Assembly: GCA_013694845.1 (NCBI GenBank)
Contig: JACDBQ010000046.1
Coordinates: forward strand, 1-49,589
From: Acidobacteriota bacterium
GTDB lineage: Bacteria > Acidobacteriota > Vicinamibacteria > Vicinamibacterales > 2-12-FULL-66-21
Reading direction: 5' to 3'
Length of the DNA: 49,589 nucleotides
The position numbers and the translations under genes are program-made. Of this stretch, positions 2,994-23,298 are shown one piece after another. The notes beneath the pieces were generated by a model. The model saw nothing but the letters and a program-made list of their open reading frames with translations, was not told the origin of the DNA and searched no databases. Position 1 is the stretch's first letter; every line of letters begins with the position of its first letter.

Positions 2994-3440
2994 CACGATG
3001 TGCAAGTACAACACGACGCTCTGGTTCGGTGAGATCGACTGTTTTGACCACCGGCCTGAAACCACACCGCACGCTCGTGAACGAAGACAGCGACGCCGAC
3101 CGGGCGGTGTAGGTCGTCACCCCGTTGACCGAGCGCGACACGCGCAGCCCGGAGGGATCGTAGCCGTAGGTGGCATTGACGTTCGGTCCCGTGAACTGGG
3201 TTACCAGGCCGACGCGTTGTCTGATAGGTGCCGCGACCATCGGCCTGGAGTTGCCCGAGATCGCTGTCGCCGAGGGACTCGGTCCGCGCACCCGTCGTCG
3301 ATGCCAATCGGCGCGTGCTGGCGTTGTAGTGGATAGGGCGTCGTCCCGGCCCCGTCTCCATCAAACGATCACCGGAGGGGGTGGTACTCGCCACGATCGC
3401 TGCCGCCAAGGCCCCCACCGCGTCCAGGCGGTTGCGCCTT
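2990..3440 (-). pseudogene. RHS/YD-repeat protein fragment, frameshifted
   Basis: Two frames carry YD-repeat-like text. One reads NRLDAVGALAAAIVASTTPSGDRLMETGPGRRPIHYNASTRRLASTTG. After a frame change the other reads VGLVTQFTGPNVNATYGYDPSGLRVSRSVNGVTTYT. No start codon, no RHS core and no C-terminal toxin domain. Confidence 0.45.
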
Positions 3441-4206
3441 GATCACCTTAACTGAAGCGAAGACCTGCTCCAATGTCTTTGGATAAGTCAGATGGTCGGA
3501 ACGCGATTTGGCGGACGAGCCGGTGTCGAAATCAGAAATGGGGCCTGGTACCTTGTCACAGTCAGTCAAAGTCGCGTCGACCCGATTCGATCGATCATTC
3601 CTGTGGTCCGTACTCGACGCCTCGGCCCGTGACCTTGATCTGCACGGGGCTGGCCGCGGCAGGGATCCTCAACCTGCGGTCGTCGAACGAGGGGCCGCCT
3701 TCAAATCGGACGGACGCGGAAATCCAGTCAGTGATCGGACATTCCAGTCGAATAGTCTCCGCAACGGCGAGCTCGAAGACCAGCAACAAATCCTGGCATT
3801 CGATCGATATCACACTTAAGCGAAAAGGGGAACTGTTGGTGAAGGACACAGAACGTGTAGCCGGAAGGCGGCCGTTCGCATTGACGAATCGAAGGGCATT
3901 GGGTCGAATCCAGTCTTCGGTTGGAAATTCCTGGCGAAATGCGACGTCACGACGATCGGCGCGGAAGACGACGAGCGGCTCGTTTCAAGAGCGGTCCACC
4001 AACTCTGCACGCACGACGTACGAGACGAACTCGGCCCGTCGGTTTGCTGTGTAACTCGCCGCGCAGCCGGACCTGATAACCGGCGGAGGATGTCTGCGTC
4101 GTGTAAGTGGCTTGAGACGTCCGATACGTTCGACTTCGCTGGCGAATGGATTCTGCCGCCGAAGGAATTGCACAGATGCGCGTGTCCCCGGCTGACACGG
4201 CACACC

Positions 4207-4445: not shown

Positions 4446-4693
4446 TCCGGTTCGCCGTGCGCTCGACGCGATCGCCGCGCCCTATGCGCTGATCGGCGGA
4501 CACGCGATGGCGGCGCGCGGCTACCCGCGCTTCACCGTCGATGTCGATCTACTGACAACCGATCACCGCGTGCTGAAACGGGAGACCTGGACGGCGTTGG
4601 AGCGAACAGGGACTGCCGTCGACCGCCGCACGTCGCACGTCGCACGTCGCACGTCGCACGTCGCACGTCGCACGTGGAACATCGCACGTGTCC
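4435..4693 (+). pseudogene. nucleotidyltransferase-fold protein truncated after ~64 codons by a heptamer array
   Basis: The N-terminus ALIGGHAMAARGYPRFTVDVDLLTTDHRVLKRETWTALERTGTAVDRR looks like the start of a nucleotidyltransferase fold (GG...R...DxD). The frame then runs into (CGCACGT)n, translated as RRTSHVARRTSHVARRT. After that it is only open antisense to the 3' end of pccB. Confidence 0.5.
4627..4689. repeat. heptanucleotide microsatellite, (CGCACGT) x7, one diverged unit, then one more unit
   Basis: Seven perfect in-phase units at 4627-4675, then GGAACAT, then CGCACGT at 4683-4689. Ends 4 nt before the pccB stop codon. Confidence 0.95.
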
Positions 4694-6235
4694 TTACAAC
4701 GGGATATTCCCATGCTTCTTGGGCGGATTCTTGTCTCGTTTGGTCTCGAGGGTCGCGAGTGCGGCAATCAGCCTGGCGCGCGTCTGCCGGGGGCGGATTA
4801 CTTCGTCCACGAACCCGCGAGCCGCGGCGACGTAGGGGTTGGCGAACTTCTCCTTGAACTCGGCAACGCGTTTCGCCCGCGCCGCATCCTTGTCGGAGGC
4901 GGCGTCGATCTCACGCTTGTAGAGAATGTTCACCGCGCCTTCGGGGCCCATCACCGCGATCTCGGCACTCGGCCAGGCGAAGTTCACGTCCGTCCGTATG
5001 TGCTTGCTGGACATGACGCAGTAGGCGCCGCCGTAGGCCTTCCGGGTGATGACGGTGAGCTTCGGCACGGTGGCTTCCGCATACGCGAACAGGAGCTTGG
5101 CGCCATGGCGGATGATCCCGCCGTACTCCTGGCGCGTGCCGGGCAGAAAACCGGGAACGTCTTCGAACGTGACCAGCGGGATGTTGAAAGCGTCGCAAAA
5201 ACGGACGAACCGGGCGGCCTTGACTGACGCGTCGATATCGAGCGTGCCGGCAAGGTGGGCCGGCTGATTCGCCACGATTCCCACGCTGCGTCCCCCGAGC
5301 CGGGCGAACCCGACGATGATGTTCTTCGCGTAGTGGCGATGGACTTCGAGGAACGCCTGTTCGTCCGCGATGATGTGCACGAGATCGTGCATGTCGTAGG
5401 GCTGATTCGGCGACTCCGGCACGAGCGTCTCGAGCGCTTCGTCCTCGCGGTCGACCGGGTCCAACGTCTCGCGCCGCGGCGCCTCGTCCACGTTGTTGCC
5501 CGGCAGATAACTCAGGAGCTCGCGGATCGTTCGCAGGCAGTCACGGTCGTCGGGAGTCGAGAAATGCGCCACGCCGCTGATCTCGTTGTGAGTCCGGGCG
5601 CCGCCGAGCTCTTCCTTGGTCACCTCTTCGTTCGTGACCGTCCGTATGACGTCGGGCCCGGTCACGAACATGTAGCTCGTGCCCTCGACCATGATGTTGA
5701 AGTCGGTGATCGCCGGCGAGTACACGGCCCCACCGGCGCACGGCCCCATGATCGCGGAAATCTGCGGAATGACGCCTGAGGCCAGGGTGTTCCTGAGAAA
5801 GATGTCGGCGTAGCCCCCCAGTGACAGCACGCCTTCCTGGATGCGCGCCCCCCCCGAGTCGTTGAGCCCGACGATCGGCGCGCCCATCTTCAAGGCGAGA
5901 TCCATCAGCTTCACGATCTTTGCCGCGTTGGTCTCGGAGAGCGATCCGCCGAAGACGGTGAAGTCCTGCGCGAAGGCAAAGACGGGCCGGCCATCCACCC
6001 GGCCCTGTCCCGCGACGACGCCATCGCCCGGGATGATCTGCTCGTCCATCCCGAAATCCCGGCACCGATGCGTCACCAGCTTGTCGACCTCCTGGAACGT
6101 CCCGGGATCGAACAGCAGGTCGATCCGCTCACGCGCGGTCAGCTTGCCGGCGTCGTGCTGCTTCTTCAATCGATCTTCGCCGCCGCCCAGTTCGGCGCGG
6201 CGCTCGAGATCTTCGAGATATTTGAGTGTGTTCAT
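4694..6235 (-). CDS. pccB: acyl-CoA carboxylase carboxyltransferase subunit (propionyl-CoA carboxylase beta / methylmalonyl-CoA carboxyltransferase type)
   Basis: 513 aa. [51 protein letters not shown] and [13 protein letters not shown] are typical carboxyltransferase 12S/PccB motifs. Confidence 0.93.
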
Positions 6236-6250
6236 TCGGTCGGGTCGGAA

Positions 6251-6285
6251 GCTATCAGCTATCAGCCATCAGCTGTCAGCCATCG
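6251..6285. repeat. heptanucleotide tandem array, 5 units
   Basis: GCTATCA GCTATCA GCCATCA GCTGTCA GCCATCG. The reverse complement reads GATGGCT GACAGCT GATGGCT GATAGCT GATAGC, which resembles the GAT-type arrays at 2751 and 23257. Confidence 0.8.
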
Positions 6286-15635: not shown

Positions 15636-16220
15636 CTAGTGCTTCAACGCGTCTGCGCTCACGCCCGCCTGGTGCAGCTGCTTCCGCACGACGCTCAACC
15701 CCTGGTAGAGCCGAGTCTTTACAGTACTCAGCGGGCAATCCAGTAGTTCCGCAATCTCCTGGAACGTCAAGCCGTGGTATTCCTTCAAGATGATCGCGGT
15801 GCGCTGGTCTTCGGGCAGCATGGCCATCGCCTTGCTCACCGCCCTGCCGAGCTGCCGCCGGCCAACGAGTTCCTCCATCGACTCCGAGGGCGTGGCTTCG
15901 CCCGCAAGCTCGATGATGTCGATCCCCTCGGGCGCCTGCGACACGGGCGTCCGCTTCTCTCGCCGGATCCAGTCCCGACACAGGTTCAGGGTGATCCGGT
16001 AGAGCCAGGACGAGAACTTCGCCTGGCCTTTGAACCCATTGAGCGCGCGAAAGGCGCGGAGGAAGGCCTCCTGGGCGACGTCACGCGCGTCTTCTTCCCG
16101 GCCGAGGACCCGGTAAGCCAGGGCATAGATTGGCCGCTCCCAGCGTAAAACCAGCTGGTTGAAGCTATCGAGGTCACCTCCTTGTGAAAGGGTGACCAGC
16201 TCTTCATCTGACGACGCCAT
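15636..16220 (-). CDS. ECF-type RNA polymerase sigma-70 factor
   Basis: 194 aa. Region 2 (DVAQEAFLRAFRALNGFKGQAKFSSWLYRITLNLCRDWIRR) and region 4 (EDQRTAIILKEYHGLTFQEIAELLDCPLSTVKTRLYQG). Confidence 0.92.
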   Translation of the reverse strand: MASSDEELVTLSQGGDLDSFNQLVLRWERPIYALAYRVLGREEDARDVAQEAFLRAFRALNGFKGQAKFSSWLYRITLNLCRDWIRREKRTPVSQAPEGIDIIELAGEATPSESMEELVGRRQLGRAVSKAMAMLPEDQRTAIILKEYHGLTFQEIAELLDCPLSTVKTRLYQGLSVVRKQLHQAGVSADALKH

Positions 16221-16255: not shown

Positions 16256-16308
16256 GTCAGTCGGAAGACTGTTGTCAGTCGGGTGACTGTTGTTAGTCGG
16301 GTGACTGG
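16256..16308. repeat. three tandem 18-bp units, each with an internal CAGTC-N4-GACTG palindrome
   Basis: GTCAGTCGGAAGACTGTT / GTCAGTCGGGTGACTGTT / GTTAGTCGGGTGACTGG. Located in the divergent gap between the ECF sigma gene (start 16220) and the GAF kinase gene (start 16350). Confidence 0.85.
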
Positions 16309-16349: not shown

Positions 16350-17570
16350 ATGGATTCTCAACTCATCGAGCGGCTGACCAGGGAACTTGCCCTGCGCAAG
16401 CGCCTGCAGCAGGCCTTGCTTCTCTTTTCCCGAGGGGTCTCGGCCAACCTCGGGTTCGCGCCGGCGCTCGAATCACTCACGATCGACCTGACCACCGCCT
16501 TCGGCGTCCGCCGAACGTCCATCTGGATGCACGACCGTCGGGTCCGGATCCTGACACTGGCGGCGTCGTCGGACCCGCGGGAGTCCGCAACCAAGCCCAG
16601 TATCGCCTCCAACGAGGACTCGATGATCGCTCGTGGACTGCGGCTGGACGCCCCGGAGCTGTTCTCTGTCGCCGAGGCACAGTGCCTCGTCGTACCCCTG
16701 CGGGGATGGCGGCGCGCGCTGGGCACGCTGGTGATCGAAGGGGAGCCCCGGGACGTGGACTCTCCTCTCTTCATAGAGACCGGGGCTGACCTCGGACGGC
16801 AGCTGTCCATCGCGATCGAGCGCGTCCTGGTGCTCAGCGAGGTTCTGGGCGATATCAGTGAGCAGAACCAGCTGCGCAGTCGTCTCGTGCAGGCGGCAAA
16901 ACTCGCGGCGCTGGGCCAGTTCATCGCCGGGATCGCTCACGAGATCAACAATCCGCTCCAGGGTGTGCTGGGCTACGCGGAGCTGATGCTCGAAACCATC
17001 GATCCCGACAGTCCGCATCGATCCGACTTGCGGCGTATTTACCTCGAAGCCGACCGCGCCGCGGAGATCGTGCGCAACCTGCTGGTGTTCACGGGGTCAC
17101 AGCGCTCGCCTCGGAGGCCAATCGACATCCCGGCCCTGATCGGCGAGACGATCGCGATCCGGCAGGCCGCGGCAGACACGGCGCGGATCCACATCGCGCA
17201 GCTCGGCGACACGGTCCTTCCGCTCGTCCTCGGGGACGCGCTGCGCCTGCAACAGGCGTTTTTGAACATCCTGATCAACGCCGAACAGGCGATTGCGTCC
17301 GCAAGTGTACCCGGACGGATTACGATCACGCTCGCGGCGGCGACGCCCGGGCTCGTGATCCACGTGGATGACTCCGGTCCCGGGATACCTGATGACGTGA
17401 TGCCCCGGATTTTCGATCCGTTCTTCACGACGAAGGACGTTGGCCAGGGAACCGGCCTGGGCCTGGCGATCGCCTACGGAATCATTCAGGACCACAGCGG
17501 CGTGCTCACGGCAGAAAGCTCTGCTCTGGGAGGGGCGAGGTTCAGCATCCAGCTGCCCGCGGAGTGGTAA
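16350..17570 (+). CDS. sensor histidine kinase with N-terminal GAF-like domain
   Basis: 406 aa. H-box [22 protein letters not shown]. HATPase_c motifs [37 protein letters not shown]. Confidence 0.9.
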
Positions 17571-17595
17571 AGTGAACGTTCCGAGCTCCGCAGAT

Positions 17596-18186
17596 ATGGA
17601 CGACGCTTTTCTGACAACCGAAGAGGTACTCGAGTACCTCCAGGTAAACCTCCGCACGGTGTACCGCCTCATCAAGGCCGGCAAGATCCCGGCGGTCAGG
17701 GTCGGCCGTCAGTGGCGATTTCGGCGGCGGGACATCGATGCGTGGCTCGAAACTCAACGCGCTCGCGCCGGGCGGTCCGGCGCCACGTCGGCGCGTCACG
17801 CGGGCCCGGTTGGAGGACGCGCACGGGTGCTCGTCGTCGATGACGAAGAGACGATTCGGGATCTGCTCTCCAAGACGCTCGCCCTGGCCGACTACGAAGT
17901 CGATCTGGCACCCGACGGACGAACCGCGGTCGACCGCATGCGGATCATTCAATACGATCTGCTCATTACCGACCTTCGCATGCCAGGCGTCGACGGCTTG
18001 AACGTGATCCGCGAAGCGCGCCGGCTGAAGGCTGACATCCCCGTGATCATCGTGACCGGCTACTCCAGCGAAGCGAGCGCCATCGAGGCGATCAACCTGG
18101 GTGTACAGGGCTACCTCACCAAACCGTTCCGGGTCCCGCGCGTGCTCGCGGCGGCCGCAAAGGCGCTCCGCGAAGTCGCAAGTTGA
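17596..18186 (+). CDS. response regulator with N-terminal excisionase/MerR-type HTH and C-terminal receiver domain
   Basis: LTTEEVLEYLQVNLRTVYRLIKAGKIPAVRVGRQWRFRRRDIDAWL, then RVLVVDDEETIRDLL...DLLITDLRMPGVDG...GYLTKPF. Alternative GTG start at 17572. The track ORF from 17440 overlaps the kinase gene. Confidence 0.85.
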   Translation: MDDAFLTTEEVLEYLQVNLRTVYRLIKAGKIPAVRVGRQWRFRRRDIDAWLETQRARAGRSGATSARHAGPVGGRARVLVVDDEETIRDLLSKTLALADYEVDLAPDGRTAVDRMRIIQYDLLITDLRMPGVDGLNVIREARRLKADIPVIIVTGYSSEASAIEAINLGVQGYLTKPFRVPRVLAAAAKALREVAS

Positions 18187-20279
18187 TCCAGCTCGTTTCC
18201 CTCAGCAAATCTTTTGGCGGGCGCGTCCTGCTCGACTCGGTGAGTTGGCAGATCGACGATCGCGAGCGCGTCGGCCTCAGCGGACCCAACGGCGCGGGCA
18301 AGACGACCCTGCTCAAAATGCTCGCAGGATTCGAGGAGTCCGACGCCGGGTCCATCGTCAAGCCGGCCGGCCTGACCGTCGGATACCTGCCGCAGGACGG
18401 CCTCAACCACAGCGGACGGACGCTGATCGAGGAGGCGGGCCTCGCCTTCAAGCCGCTACTCGACATGCGTGACGAAATCAGCACGCTCGAGGAGAAGCTG
18501 GGGGAAGAGAATCCAGAAGAGGCACACGCCGCGATGCTCGAGCGCTACAGCGACCTTCAGGACACATTCCGCCGCCGCGAGGGTTACAGCATCGACCTGA
18601 AGATCACGACCGTGCTCCGTGGTCTGGGCTTCACCCCCGACGATCTCCACAAGCGGTCCGAAACATTTTCGGGTGGGTGGCAGATGCGCATCGCGCTCGC
18701 CAAACTTCTCCTCGGCCGGCCGGGCCTGCTCCTGCTGGACGAGCCAACCAACCACCTGGATCTCGAGGCGAGGAACTGGCTCGAAGAGTACCTGGCCGAC
18801 TACCCTCATGCCGTCATCCTGGTCTCACACGACCGCTTCTTCCTGGATGCCGTGGTCACCCGGATCACCGAAATCGGCTTGCGCAGACTGACCGATTACA
18901 CGGGGAACTACACCGATTACCTGCAGGAGCGCGAGGCGCGCATGGAGCGTCTCCGGCAGATGAAACGGGACCAGGACGAGGAAGTCGAGCGGATGCAGGC
19001 CTTCATCAACCGATTCCGGTACCAGGCCACCAAGGCGGCCCAGGTGCAGAGCCGGATCAAGATGCTCGACAAGGTCGTGCCGATCGAGATCCCGCCCGAG
19101 CGGAAACGTGTCCGCTTCACCTTCCCGGCGTGCGCCCGTAGCGGGCGGATGGTGCTCGAGCTCAAAAACATCCGGAAGGCCTACGACCGCCGCGCGGTCC
19201 TCGATGGCGTGAACGCGCACATCGAGCGCGGCGATCGCATCGCTCTCATCGGTCCCAATGGCGCCGGCAAGTCGACGATGATGCGGATGCTCTCGGGAGT
19301 CGAGCCGCCCGATTCGGGTACCCGGACCGAAGGGCACCAGGTGATCACGCAGTACTTCGCGCAGGACGAAGCGACCCGGCTCGACCCGACGCGCACGGTA
19401 TACCAGATTCTCGCCGGGGATGCGCCCCTCCAGATGGTCCCGCACATCCGCAACATCCTCGGCGGCTTTCTCTTCTCGGGGGACGACGTCGAAAAGCCGG
19501 TGAGAGTGCTGTCGGGCGGAGAGCGTACGCGGCTCGCGGTCGCACGGATGCTGCTGCGCCCGTCCAACACGTTGGTGCTCGACGAGCCAACCAACCACCT
19601 GGACCTCGACTCCAAGGACGTTTTGCTTGAAGCGCTAGAGGACTTCGGGGGCACGTTGATCTTCGTCTCGCACGACCGGTACTTCGTCGACAACCTCGCC
19701 ACCAAAGTGATCGAGATCGGCGGGGGCCAGGCGCTCCTCTACCCCGGCAACTACGAAGAGTTCCTCTGGAGCCGAAAGCACGCTGCCAGTTCCCAGCTTC
19801 CAGCGTCCAGCTCCGACCGTTCGGCGGCCACCGCTCGGGTGTCCTCGAAGCCCGACGTCGCCACTCGCAAGCGAGAAGTTCGAGGCGGGAAACAGAATCC
19901 TGGAGACAGGCCAGAACCAGCAAGCGCGCCGCTGGAAGCTGGAAGCCGGGCGGTACAACCTGGAGCCGGGAAGCTGGAAGCTGGCAGCGGGAAGCTGGAA
20001 GCTGAAAAGCAGCCCACTTACGACGATCGAAAGCGCCAGGAAGCCGAGGCGCGGAAGGAGCGCAAGGCGGAAGGCGCCCGGCGCCGCCGGGTGGATGAGC
20101 TCGAGGCCCGCATCGCCGAACGCGAGGCCGAGGTGAAGGCAATCGAGGCCCGGATGACGGCAAAGGGCTTCTACGACAACCACGACACGGCCAAGCCAGT
20201 CATCGACCGCCACCAGGCGCTCATGTGGGAGGTCGGCGACCTGATGGCACAGTGGGAGGCATTGCAGCACGGCGGCTGA
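18183..20279 (+). CDS. ABC-F family ATPase (two ABC domains, coiled-coil C-terminal domain) with an expanded linker
   Basis: 698 aa, TTG start overlapping the upstream stop. Two Walker A motifs (GPNGAGKTT, GPNGAGKST), two signature motifs (FSGGWQMR, LSGGERTR) and no TM domain. C-terminal KRQEAEARKERKAEG...coiled coil. Confidence 0.92.
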   Translation: MIQLVSLSKSFGGRVLLDSVSWQIDDRERVGLSGPNGAGKTTLLKMLAGFEESDAGSIVKPAGLTVGYLPQDGLNHSGRTLIEEAGLAFKPLLDMRDEISTLEEKLGEENPEEAHAAMLERYSDLQDTFRRREGYSIDLKITTVLRGLGFTPDDLHKRSETFSGGWQMRIALAKLLLGRPGLLLLDEPTNHLDLEARNWLEEYLADYPHAVILVSHDRFFLDAVVTRITEIGLRRLTDYTGNYTDYLQEREARMERLRQMKRDQDEEVERMQAFINRFRYQATKAAQVQSRIKMLDKVVPIEIPPERKRVRFTFPACARSGRMVLELKNIRKAYDRRAVLDGVNAHIERGDRIALIGPNGAGKSTMMRMLSGVEPPDSGTRTEGHQVITQYFAQDEATRLDPTRTVYQILAGDAPLQMVPHIRNILGGFLFSGDDVEKPVRVLSGGERTRLAVARMLLRPSNTLVLDEPTNHLDLDSKDVLLEALEDFGGTLIFVSHDRYFVDNLATKVIEIGGGQALLYPGNYEEFLWSRKHAASSQLPASSSDRSAATARVSSKPDVATRKREVRGGKQNPGDRPEPASAPLEAGSRAVQPGAGKLEAGSGKLEAEKQPTYDDRKRQEAEARKERKAEGARRRRVDELEARIAEREAEVKAIEARMTAKGFYDNHDTAKPVIDRHQALMWEVGDLMAQWEALQHGG
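19782..19816. repeat. heptamer array inside the ABC-F CDS (TTCCAGC polarity), 5 units
   Basis: GCTGCCA GTTCCCA GCTTCCA GCGTCCA GCTCCGA. Translated in frame as AASSQLPASSSDR. Confidence 0.75.
19931..20007. repeat. heptamer array inside the ABC-F CDS (GCTGGAA polarity), 11 in-phase units
   Basis: GCTGGAA GCTGGAA GCCGGGC GGTACAA CCTGGAG CCGGGAA GCTGGAA GCTGGCA GCGGGAA GCTGGAA GCTGAAA. It has the opposite polarity to 19782-19816. Translated as LEAGSRAVQPGAGKLEAGSGKLEAEK. Confidence 0.8.
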
Positions 20280-20294
20280 TAGCGAGTGCCGCGG

Positions 20295-20362
20295 CTTCGG
20301 CAACTTCTCGACCTTCCCGCTTCCCCGATCTTCGGCGACTTCTCGACCTTCGTGCTTCCCCG
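20295..20362. repeat. two tandem 35-nt (5 x 7) copies just after the ABC-F stop
   Basis: CTTCGGCAACTTCTCGACCTTCCCGCTTCCCCG (20295-20327) and CTTCGGCGACTTCTCGACCTTCGTGCTTCCCCG (20330-20362), period 35. The word GACCTTCGTG also occurs near 6365. Confidence 0.8.
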
Positions 20363-20474
20363 TCACCTCTAACGTTTTTGTAATCTCCCGCCGAAACTGT
20401 CACTGTCGCGGCTGGGCTGAGTACAGAATCGTTTGAGTTACGGCCTGAATTGAGGCGGCGCCGGCCTGGAGGCG

Positions 20475-20490
20475 GGGCACACCCTTTGCG
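20475..20490 (+). promoter_or_regulatory. sigma54-type promoter (GGGCACA-N4-TTGCG) in front of the NtrB/NtrC-like operon
   Basis: GG at 20476-77 and GC at 20488-89, exactly 10 nt apart. The GGCAC and TTGC cores are intact. About 30 nt upstream of ATG 20520. Confidence 0.5.
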
Positions 20491-20519
20491 CTGGGGAACG
20501 AGCCACGCCTATTACACAA

Positions 20520-21722
20520 ATGGAACCAACCTCGAGTCCCAAGCGCACCCGGAAAGCGGAAGCTCCACAAGGATCCCGGCGTCCGGTCGTGCGTCCCGAC
20601 GTGGATGGCGATCCGTCGCTCCACGCGGTCGCTGAGACTTTCTACCGCGACCTGGTGTGGAACCTTCGGAACGGCGTGCTGGCCGTTACCCTCGACGGCC
20701 GCATTGCGGTCATGAACGAGGTCGCCTACCGGATCTTCGGTCTGGATCCACAAGCCTCCGACATCGGACGTCCGTACGAGGAGGTCCTGAAGGACCTGCC
20801 CGACGTAACCCGAATCATCGCGGGCGCCTTCGAGCTTTCTCACCTGCCGAATCGCGCCGAGCTGCGGCTCAGACGGACCAATAGAGTCATCGGCTACACG
20901 CTTTCGCAGGTGCGCGACGCGAGCGGCCGCGTCACCGGGGCCACACTGTTCTTCAAGGACCTGACCCGCGTCGAGCAGCTCGAAGAACGGGAGCGGCTGC
21001 GGGATCGGCTCGCGGCGCTGGGCGAGATGGCTGCCGTGATCGCCCACGAAGTCAAGAATCCGCTTGCCGGGATCGAGGTGATGGCCGGCCTGCTGAAGCG
21101 GCAGCTCGCCGACAACCAGGATGCGCTCTCGATCCTCAGCGACATCATCAAGGAAGCGAAGATGGCCAACGCCATCGTGATCGAGGTGCTCGACTTCGTG
21201 CGCCCGATCCGGCTTCAGGTCGAACACATCGCGCTTGCCGATGTCGTGCGCGACGCGGTGTCGATGGCCGACAGCCACAAGCGGCGTGGGGGGATACAGG
21301 TGTCACTGGCGGTGCCCGATGATCTGCCCTACATCCAGGGAGACCCGCACCAGCTGCGGCAGATTTTCACCAACCTGCTGACCAACGCCTTCGAGGCGAT
21401 GAACGGCCTCGGCCAGGTCCGCATCTCCGCCACCCAGCTTGCCACCGAGGAGGAAGTGGCCGTCGGCAGCGACGTGAAAGCCGTGCCGATGGTCCAGCTG
21501 GAAGTGGCCGACGACGGTCCGGGCGTCTCGCCGGACCTCATGGACAAGATGTTCAGCCCGTTCTTCACGACCAAGCCTCAGGGATCCGGGCTGGGTCTGG
21601 CCATCGTACGGAAGATCGTCGATGCGCACGACGGCCGGATCGACGTGAGTGCCCGGCCCGAAGGGGGCGTGCGCTTCCGGGTGACGATACCAGTCACTGG
21701 TAATCACGAGTTGTTTCGGTAG
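20520..21722 (+). CDS. PAS-domain sensor histidine kinase (NtrB/AtoS-like)
   Basis: 400 aa. PAS-like NGVLAVTLDGRIAVMNEVAYRIFGL. H-box LGEMAAVIAHEVKNPLAGI. HATPase_c motifs NLLTNAFEAM, DDGPGV, FFTTKPQGSGLGLAIVRK. Confidence 0.9.
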   Translation: MEPTSSPKRTRKAEAPQGSRRPVVRPDVDGDPSLHAVAETFYRDLVWNLRNGVLAVTLDGRIAVMNEVAYRIFGLDPQASDIGRPYEEVLKDLPDVTRIIAGAFELSHLPNRAELRLRRTNRVIGYTLSQVRDASGRVTGATLFFKDLTRVEQLEERERLRDRLAALGEMAAVIAHEVKNPLAGIEVMAGLLKRQLADNQDALSILSDIIKEAKMANAIVIEVLDFVRPIRLQVEHIALADVVRDAVSMADSHKRRGGIQVSLAVPDDLPYIQGDPHQLRQIFTNLLTNAFEAMNGLGQVRISATQLATEEEVAVGSDVKAVPMVQLEVADDGPGVSPDLMDKMFSPFFTTKPQGSGLGLAIVRKIVDAHDGRIDVSARPEGGVRFRVTIPVTGNHELFR

Positions 21723-23256: not shown

Positions 23257-23298
23257 GATTACCAATTACCGATCAGGGATCAGGGATTAGCGATCGCA
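23257..23298. repeat. heptanucleotide tandem array, 6 units (GAT-type)
   Basis: GATTACC AATTACC GATCAGG GATCAGG GATTAGC GATCGCA. It fills most of the 62-bp gap between the convergent ntrC-like and xerC genes. Confidence 0.85.

Follow-up and report, generated by a model that had tools for sequence, protein, structure and literature searches.

Inverted heptanucleotide repeat arrays in the predicted disordered tether of a YheS-like ABC-F protein of Vicinamibacterales

The DNA analyzed here, called the window, is the 49,589-nt stretch at positions 1–49,589 of contig JACDBQ010000046.1 (assembly GCA_013694845.1) of an Acidobacteriota bacterium of the order Vicinamibacterales. It carries a gene for a YheS-like ABC-F ATPase. 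The linker between the second nucleotide-binding domain (NBD2) and the C-terminal helical hairpin of this protein is read through two arrays of degenerate 7-nt repeats of opposite polarity. We think it probable that this tether has been repeatedly rebuilt from heptanucleotide microsatellites across Vicinamibacterales, by slippage and inverted duplication filtered by reading frame and by avoidance of hydrophobic codons. Judged from the sequences compared, the linker of the window is a local instance of an order-wide trait and not a private insertion. The parts of the gene on which the argument turns are as follows, with the arrays located by reading of the sequence, Tandem Repeats Finder (TRF) and pattern search.

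18183 to 20279, plus strand: gene for the ABC-F ATPase, YheS-like with a C-terminal domain (CTD), 698 aa (open reading frame (ORF) list, Pfam and match in the PDB)
19782 to 19816, plus strand: 5' heptamer array, five degenerate GCTTCCA units (TTCCAGC polarity), encoding AASSQLPASSSD
19817 to 19930, plus strand: coding spacer between the arrays, 114 nt
19931 to 20007, plus strand: 3' heptamer array, eleven units of GCTGGAA polarity with a 21-nt superperiod, encoding ...LEAGSRAVQPGAGKLEAGSGKLEAE
19794 to 20006, plus strand: predicted disordered tether, aa 538–608, between NBD2 and the C-terminal helical hairpin (AlphaFold2)
20019 to 20270, plus strand: C-terminal helical hairpin, aa 613–696, ABC_tran_CTD (AlphaFold2 and Pfam PF16326)
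19781 to 19989, plus strand: predicted long-range hairpin with arms at 19781–19830 and 19940–19989 (complementarity and RNA folding)

The array pair within the ABC-F gene

Both arrays are degenerate. The 5' units read GCTGCCA, GTTCCCA, GCTTCCA, GCGTCCA and GCTCCGA, one of the five being a perfect copy of the consensus GCTTCCA, a rotation of TTCCAGC. Units 1 to 6 of the 3' array read GCTGGAA, GCTGGAA, GCCGGGC, GGTACAA, CCTGGAG and CCGGGAA, and units 7 to 11 read GCTGGAA, GCTGGCA, GCGGGAA, GCTGGAA and GCTGAAA; four of the eleven are perfect. The longest run of perfect units is two, and the match to consensus is 67–75%. TRF calls both arrays at period 7, with 4.4 copies (5') and 10.6 copies (3'), and in the 3' array, a period of 21 nt fits better than one of 7 nt (76% versus 67% matches). 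The two-unit pattern GCTGGAAGCTGGAA, allowed up to two mismatches, matches nine times in the window versus 0.35 expected. Eight of the nine matches are in the linker; the ninth, within an ORF reading as ribosomal protein L27, is a chance match. As head-to-tail 7-nt copies above chance, the arrays are heptanucleotide simple-sequence repeats (SSRs).

An earlier note, made from the letters of this DNA, had described five units facing eleven of the opposite polarity across about 114 nt, and our reading agrees with that layout exactly. The long interrupted inverted repeat that it proposed is also there. Its arms are 74% complementary over 50 nt (19781–19830 with 19940–19989) and 81% complementary over 31 nt (19782–19812 with 19972–20002). 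The spacer shows no conservation among close relatives, whose arrays lie 9–91 nt apart by TRF coordinates. The frame stays open throughout ORF 18183–20279, with the arrays translated as AASSQLPASSS... and ...GKLEAGSGKLEAE, so that three DNA units make one 7-residue peptide repeat, again as the note had it.

An AlphaFold2 model built with a 59-sequence alignment places the arrays in a region without predicted structure. Residues 538–608 have a predicted local distance difference test (pLDDT) score of about 30, below 50 throughout, and no secondary structure. They are followed by two helices at 613–658 and 667–696 with block-mean pLDDT of 73–97, mostly above 90. The model thus bears out the suggestion of a disordered linker between the second ATPase domain and the C-terminal coil, and in it, the arrays of the window make up most of the predicted tether.

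The linker among orthologues

Related loci were fetched (167), and the linker was delimited by tblastn anchors in 165 sequences, including the window. Period-7 arrays were counted at three or more copies, in the linker and elsewhere. One locus, L163 (P0036), has fragmented neighboring genes and an apparent frameshift in the C-terminal domain, and was used for the arrays only and not for arguments about frame. The closest proteins are all from Vicinamibacterales or Acidobacteriota metagenomes and are 655–743 aa long, so the 698 aa that had been taken as long for an ABC-F is ordinary for the clade. Their linkers have no sequence in common, although many have repeats of the SSQLPAS or SGSRLPA type first and of the GSRKPEA or KLEAGSG type second.

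Heptamer arrays are a recurrent property of this linker. They are present in 68 of the 165 linkers, spread over 16 of 44 sequence clusters. In nucleotide autocorrelation, lag 7 scores highest in 53 of 158 linkers and in none of 158 control coding segments taken from those genes. The repeat units are numerous and varied; for example, GAATCAG is read as ESGIRNQ and AGCCCGA as SPKPEAR. The idea that an element had inserted into this particular gene does not survive the finding of arrays of many different units at the same linker in so many orthologues. Nor were orthologues found that share a same-sequence linker without 7-nt periodicity.

The remaining orthologues, 59% of the set, have no array, and no residual period-7 signal appears in their linkers; therefore, not every linker is visibly heptamer-derived. 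The linkers are 19–150 aa long (median, 48 aa). The medians are 50 aa with arrays, 46 aa without arrays and 26 aa in representative relatives outside the order. The window has 75 aa, so the excess over the array-less and outside medians is about 27–50 codons in place of the 75 or so extra codons that had been suggested. The longest linker, the 150 aa of L107 (3107–3556), has its first ~80 residues encoded by a 9-nt repeat, GGTGCCNNG, read as GAxGAx, which indicates that other repeat periods can also colonize the tether.

Reading frame and copy number

The earlier note had called for a comparison of unit-number changes that keep or break the frame. Linker length is divisible by three in 165 of 165 sequences. 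Copy number was compared in two pairs of relatives, L111/L112 and L164/L165, with P0002, the closest relative of the window (87% identity), left out. Both pairs show the copy-number differences between close relatives that are characteristic of heptanucleotide microsatellites. Between L111 and L112, whose flanks are identical, the difference is exactly one block of 21 nt, which is three heptamers or seven codons. L164 has flanks 98% identical to those of L165 and yet carries 23 units of a single polarity and no 3' arm. The autocorrelation at 21 nt is higher in linker arrays (0.68) than in arrays elsewhere (0.54; Fisher p = 0.04).

A coding heptamer array raises the question of phase variation. 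In neuO of Escherichia coli K1, AAGACTC heptanucleotide repeats lie in the coding region, and 66% of genomes are phase-OFF (PMC13001214). A contingency locus of that kind, in which gain or loss of one heptamer toggles the C-terminal domain, has some attractions here: neuO itself is a precedent for coding heptamers working as a switch, and the long, near-perfect arrays of some relatives, L164 among them, should be prone to frequent slippage. In simulation, adding or removing one unit in either array of the window gives a product of 609 or 648 aa, and changes of one or two units give products of 609–655 aa, all without the C-terminal domain. Against this, no out-of-frame allele occurs among the 165 linkers, the arrays of the window have no long perfect tract, and the only copy-number difference between otherwise identical sequences is the in-frame 21-nt step of L111/L112. 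We reject phase variation as the main role because the frame is kept in all 165 linkers, unlike in neuO, and regard it as very improbable.

Inverted pairing of neighboring arrays

We counted as an array pair any two adjacent arrays within 300 nt and called it inverted if the units were reverse complements within one mismatch. By this measure, 25 of 74 adjacent pairs are inverted, compared with 2.6% of random pairs (p = 2e-21), and one of the 74 is direct. Within linkers alone, 15 of 50 adjacent pairs are inverted versus 2.7% by chance, and 34 of the 50 are neither inverted nor direct. Reverse-complement neighbors are thus about twelve times as frequent as chance in linker and intergenic DNA alike. 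The pair in the window, on opposite strands and close together, is a convergent pair of this kind. Eight or more different unit families form inverted pairs, and the polarity of the arms is variable, with the purine-rich arm coming first in L092.

Ten inverted pairs lie outside the linker. Four of these, made of ATGGCTG/CAGCCAT units, are found immediately before the ABC-F start codon, as is the pair of L154:

L046 3920 to 4002, L059 3895 to 3984, L136 974 to 1066 and L144 2917 to 2996: inverted pairs of ATGGCTG... with ...CAGCCAT filling the gap upstream of the ABC-F start
L154 4 to 188: inverted pair of AGGGCTG... with ...CAGCCCT, a 190-nt palindrome upstream of the ABC-F start

The arm nearer the gene stops 2–4 nt short of the ABC-F ATG in L136 and L144, and no obvious Shine–Dalgarno motif is seen outside the arm. 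Pairs placed in this way could sequester the translation start. A permutation test on the order of units finds it significantly mirrored in L154, L166 and L163, which supports true palindromic duplication at those loci.

The predicted mRNA hairpin

When 19770–20020 is folded as RNA, arm pairs on arm with a minimum free energy of −119.2 kcal/mol and z = −3.4 against shuffles. A second, set-wide run gave z = −2.9 for the window, and the minus strand folded as DNA gave z = −2.0. The strong internal mRNA hairpin anticipated in the earlier note therefore stands as a predicted fold, but no clear sign was seen of its selection as an RNA structure. Scans for promoters and terminators over 19500–20600 gave nothing inside the gene exceeding shuffles, and an Rfam scan of all 49.6 kb at gathering thresholds gave zero matches (no tRNA, riboswitch or leader).

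Conceivably, the inverted arrays are kept for a functional hairpin in the mRNA, serving as a ribosome pause between NBD2 and the CTD, as a processing site or as a control on full-length protein. Several results are in its favor. The fold in the window is stronger than shuffles, and z falls below −3 in 13% of orthologous linkers versus 3% of controls. Inverted pairs recur in many unit families, and the arms change together. Arms of the GCTTCCA family (GCTKCCA variants) go with GCTGGAA in the window, L161, L162 and L163 (TTCCAGC/GCTGGAA), whereas GCTTCCG goes with GCCGGAA in L165–L167 (TTCCGGC/GCCGGAA), which amounts to one compensatory unit change between subclades. Other results are contrary to this idea. 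Most orthologues are array-less, most pairs of neighboring linker arrays are of neither the inverted nor the direct kind, polarity is not fixed, the inverted arrangement is also found in intergenic DNA, L164 does without the 3' arm, and no Rfam family was matched in the window.

The mismatches between the arms bear on the same question. If a sense-strand RNA helix were under selection, G·U should be tolerated and A·C removed. In linkers, the arms have 43 A·C mismatches and 9 G·U, the opposite of that expectation, while intergenic pairs have 9 of each. Composition alone predicts an A·C to G·U ratio of 2.8:1 (p = 0.09) because the sense strand of the linker is T-poor, with 8.3% T versus 16.8% in the rest of the gene. 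T is avoided since each position of a heptamer array falls on codon position 2 once every three units, where T specifies a hydrophobic residue. Hydrophobic residues are 6.7% of the linker, whose composition is strongly biased to A, P, S, R, G and K; a perfect GCTTCCA array would encode Phe, and a perfect GCTGGAA array would encode Trp. The divergence of the arms appears to be shaped by coding constraints and not by pairing. Given the A·C-rich mismatches and the lack of a 3' arm in L164, the predicted hairpin looks like a by-product, and we consider a selected function for it unlikely.

Heptamer arrays outside the linker

Outside the linker, period 7 is also the favored period. At a TRF score of at least 60, there are 11 arrays of period 7 versus 0–2 for any other period up to 14, and shuffled DNA gave no period-7 array at a score of at least 40. 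These arrays are mostly intergenic or at the ends of ORFs. The earlier note was right that heptamer arrays occur in intergenic DNA, as is seen in both the window and related loci; its further statement that the material is the same holds for the period but not for the units, which differ. In the window, the other heptamer arrays are at 2750–2774, 4627–4689, 6250–6284 and 23271–23295. Two of them bracket a carboxyl-transferase gene (4694..6235, minus strand, PF01039). (CGCACGT)x9 at 4627–4689 is about 5 nt past its stop, and (AGCTATC/AGCCATC)x5 at 6250–6284 is 15 nt upstream of its ATG. The unit of the latter belongs to the ATGGCTG/CAGCCAT family that forms inverted pairs before the ABC-F start in other genomes.

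Immediately 3' of the ABC-F stop codon, at 20295–20362, there is a 35-nt (5 x 7) direct repeat in 1.9 copies, and L164 has two heptamer arrays (3405–3520) at the matching place. The 3' intergenic region of the ABC-F gene is therefore also repeat-prone. Heptamer arrays are also found on the minus strand in L044 (9670–9730, TGGGCTT x8.7), L079 (9383–9423, TCGGGCT x5.9) and L040 (9713–9742, TGGGATT x4.3). These are in coding-like stop-to-stop ORFs about 5.5 kb downstream of the ABC-F start, near a gene for a XerC-like integrase.

Similar pairs in intergenic regions, and two inverted arms around a non-conserved spacer in the linker, are what might be left by a mobile element with terminal inverted repeats, such as a miniature inverted-repeat transposable element (MITE) or a repetitive extragenic palindromic (REP) sequence, inserted into the ABC-F gene. 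Such elements typically recur as numerous copies of a single conserved sequence with defined ends and target duplications. The unit pair has no second copy in the 49.6-kb window, units vary between loci and lineages, and no element sequence common to the loci was seen (target-site duplications were not searched for). Furthermore, the arrays are at the same position of the gene across the entire order, and their arm lengths and spacers vary continuously. The chance that a mobile element accounts for them is extremely small.

The linkers are exceptionally rich in arrays. They constitute 1.95% of the 1.29 Mb examined and contain 118 of the 234 period-7 arrays, a density of 4.7 per kb versus 0.09 per kb elsewhere. 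The linker excess is still about 15-fold when all other arrays are assigned to non-coding-like DNA (range 15–50-fold). The association of linker arrays with the local density of intergenic arrays is not significant.

Selection could in principle act on the protein, with the 7-residue repeats (SSQLPAS, GKLEAGS) being binding or modification motifs or a spacer with defined properties and the DNA periodicity being their shadow. The stronger 21-nt superperiod of linker arrays compared with intergenic arrays, the biased composition and the roughly twofold greater length of the linker in the order than in outside relatives would all fit. So would the Borg elements, whose tandem repeats reportedly give rise to disordered regions that are under selection (10.1101/2022.05.18.492195). 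However, no peptide motif is kept between lineages, the primary period is 7 nt and not 21, the 7-nt arrays and inverted pairs also occur in non-coding DNA, and linkers with and without arrays are similar in length. We consider it quite unlikely that the peptide repeats are what is selected.

Proposed origin of the tether

We return to the rebuilding of the tether from heptanucleotide microsatellites, which we favor. Heptamer slippage and inverted duplication would be active throughout these genomes and would keep rewriting the tether. The arrays would grow by slipped-strand mispairing. The partner of opposite polarity would come from inverted duplication or strand switching, and the arms would afterwards be homogenized or else share descent. 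Selection would pass only variants that are stop-free, in frame and poor in hydrophobic codons. The filter would be no more specific than that because the tether needs length and flexibility, not sequence. A hairpin in mRNA or single-strand DNA would be a by-product of how the arrays originate and not itself selected.

Several points weigh against this account. Mirrored unit order is supported only in L154, L166 and L163 and not in the window (p = 0.75, with low power for short arms). Because the related sequences are all metagenome assemblies, copy-number heterogeneity at the level of reads is invisible. Fold z-scores are below −2 in 22% of linkers versus 5% of control segments, and these z-scores and the co-variation of the arms are also expected under selection for pairing. 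The A·C bias, since it fits composition, only fails to support selection on RNA and is compatible with it. The ~15-fold excess in linkers is larger than expected from simple tolerance and may point to positive selection or to some mechanism of targeting.

A bolder proposal is conceivable. The inverted heptamer pairs would be a distinct, actively generated element of Vicinamibacterales, made by a dedicated or strongly biased mechanism and used as hairpins ahead of start codons, and the ABC-F linker would be a selected site that tunes the amount of full-length versus CTD-less factor. We think this improbable. If it were true, the hairpin or a hard-to-translate repeat peptide would do the tuning; for example, a ribosome-rescue factor could in this way sense its own activity.

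Relation to known repeat systems

Heptamer SSRs, paired arrays and repeat-derived disordered regions are already known, and the ABC-F linker is a variant of these. A literature search on heptamer repeats in Acidobacteria and Vicinamibacteria found nothing specific. The nearest parallel for the pairing is in Xanthomonas, where GGGAATC heptamer arrays form 70–75 convergent (inverted) close pairs of a type conserved between species (Rehm et al. 2015, PMC4692102). That paper cites a 2007 survey in which heptamers were over-represented. The two systems are alike in that 7-nt units are the favored long SSR class, copy number differs between relatives and close pairs are convergent. In Xanthomonas, however, the arrays are intergenic and use a single G-rich unit genome-wide, which has been studied as a G-quadruplex former (PMC4692102). 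Here, there are many units that are not G-quadruplex formers, the pair studied is inside a conserved coding sequence, and its GCTGGAA unit has no G3+ tract.

With neuO, the linker arrays share 7-nt units inside an ORF that are translated as a 7-residue repeat, with full length requiring a frame-compatible number of units. The neuO array is single, perfect and at the 5' end of a phage-borne gene. Here, the arrays are degenerate and have two polarities, the linker that contains them is internal to a translation factor of housekeeping type, and 165 of 165 linkers are in frame.

In Beggiatoaceae and Cyanobacteria, heptamer repeats of the unit TAACTGA cluster immediately before start codons. It was reasoned for them that a heptamer array reads as a single 7-aa repeat whichever frame is used and can be tolerated only if it contains no stop (MacGregor 2015, PMC4679880). 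The ATGGCTG/CAGCCAT arrays of L136 and L144, which end just before the ABC-F ATG, resemble them. Unlike these, TAACTGA is a single unit common to several phyla, contains stop codons in its forward orientation and is almost never internal to genes.

In Borg proteins, fast-evolving tandem repeats within ORFs create disordered, hydrophilic amino-acid repeats (Schoelmerich et al., 10.1101/2022.05.18.492195). There, as here, the repeats of homologues are similar in composition and different in DNA sequence. The Borg units within ORFs are all divisible by three, whereas with 7-nt units only three-unit steps keep the frame, and the inverted pairing is a feature of the Vicinamibacterales arrays.

Genes are not expected to contain tandem repeats whose unit length is other than a multiple of three, and neuO, the known case of a coding heptamer repeat, acts as an on/off switch. 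Throughout Vicinamibacterales, an order of abundant soil bacteria, a conserved translation factor would have received its tether from a 7-nt microsatellite process, with the frame kept in every linker examined. This would be a natural example of a genome-wide mutational bias, in heptamer slippage and inverted duplication, writing protein sequence in disordered regions, with coding constraints editing the repeats through three-unit steps and avoidance of T. Vicinamibacterales is also a further lineage with abundant heptamer arrays and inverted pairs, alongside Xanthomonas, Cyanobacteria and Beggiatoaceae.

The host gene and its neighborhood

The gene product has the domain composition of an ABC-F protein, with two NBDs joined by the ABC_tran_Xtn/PtIM domain, a C-terminal helical domain and no membrane domain. 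Pfam finds ABC_tran twice (E = 1.3e-48), ABC_tran_Xtn at 231–312 and ABC_tran_CTD (PF16326) at 632–695, the last with 40 bits versus a cut-off of 32. Among NCBIfam models, it passes the generic ABC-F model NF000355 (469 bits versus 380) and reaches no equivalog cut-off, including that for YheS (NF007921/PRK10636, 385.5 bits versus 917). The best sequence match in the PDB is nevertheless E. coli YheS (9nlh/9vvi, E = 1e-98). In that protein, the C-terminal extension is flexible, and residues 527–637 are invisible in cryo-electron microscopy (PMC13249984). The likeness to YheS covers the two NBDs, the PtIM and the flexible C-terminal extension; the differences are the score far below the equivalog cut-off and a tether that exceeds those of relatives outside the order by about 50 aa.

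The gene order around the ABC-F gene is kept in relatives. It consists of genes for an extracytoplasmic function (ECF) sigma factor and anti-sigma factor, a histidine kinase, an HTH_17/receiver regulator, the ABC-F protein, a PAS kinase and a sigma-54 activator. The stop of the HTH_17/receiver response-regulator gene (17440–18186) overlaps the TTG start of the ABC-F gene at 18183 by 4 nt. On gene order, the kept run of kinase, regulator, ABC-F, PAS kinase and sigma-54 activator suggests a translation factor co-transcribed with two-component systems. Upstream, between the divergent genes for the ECF sigma factor (15636..16220, minus strand) and the histidine kinase (from 16350, plus strand), an 18-nt tandem repeat, GTCAGTCGGGTGACTGTT, is present in 2.9 copies at 16256–16307. 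It may be an operator or other regulatory repeat.

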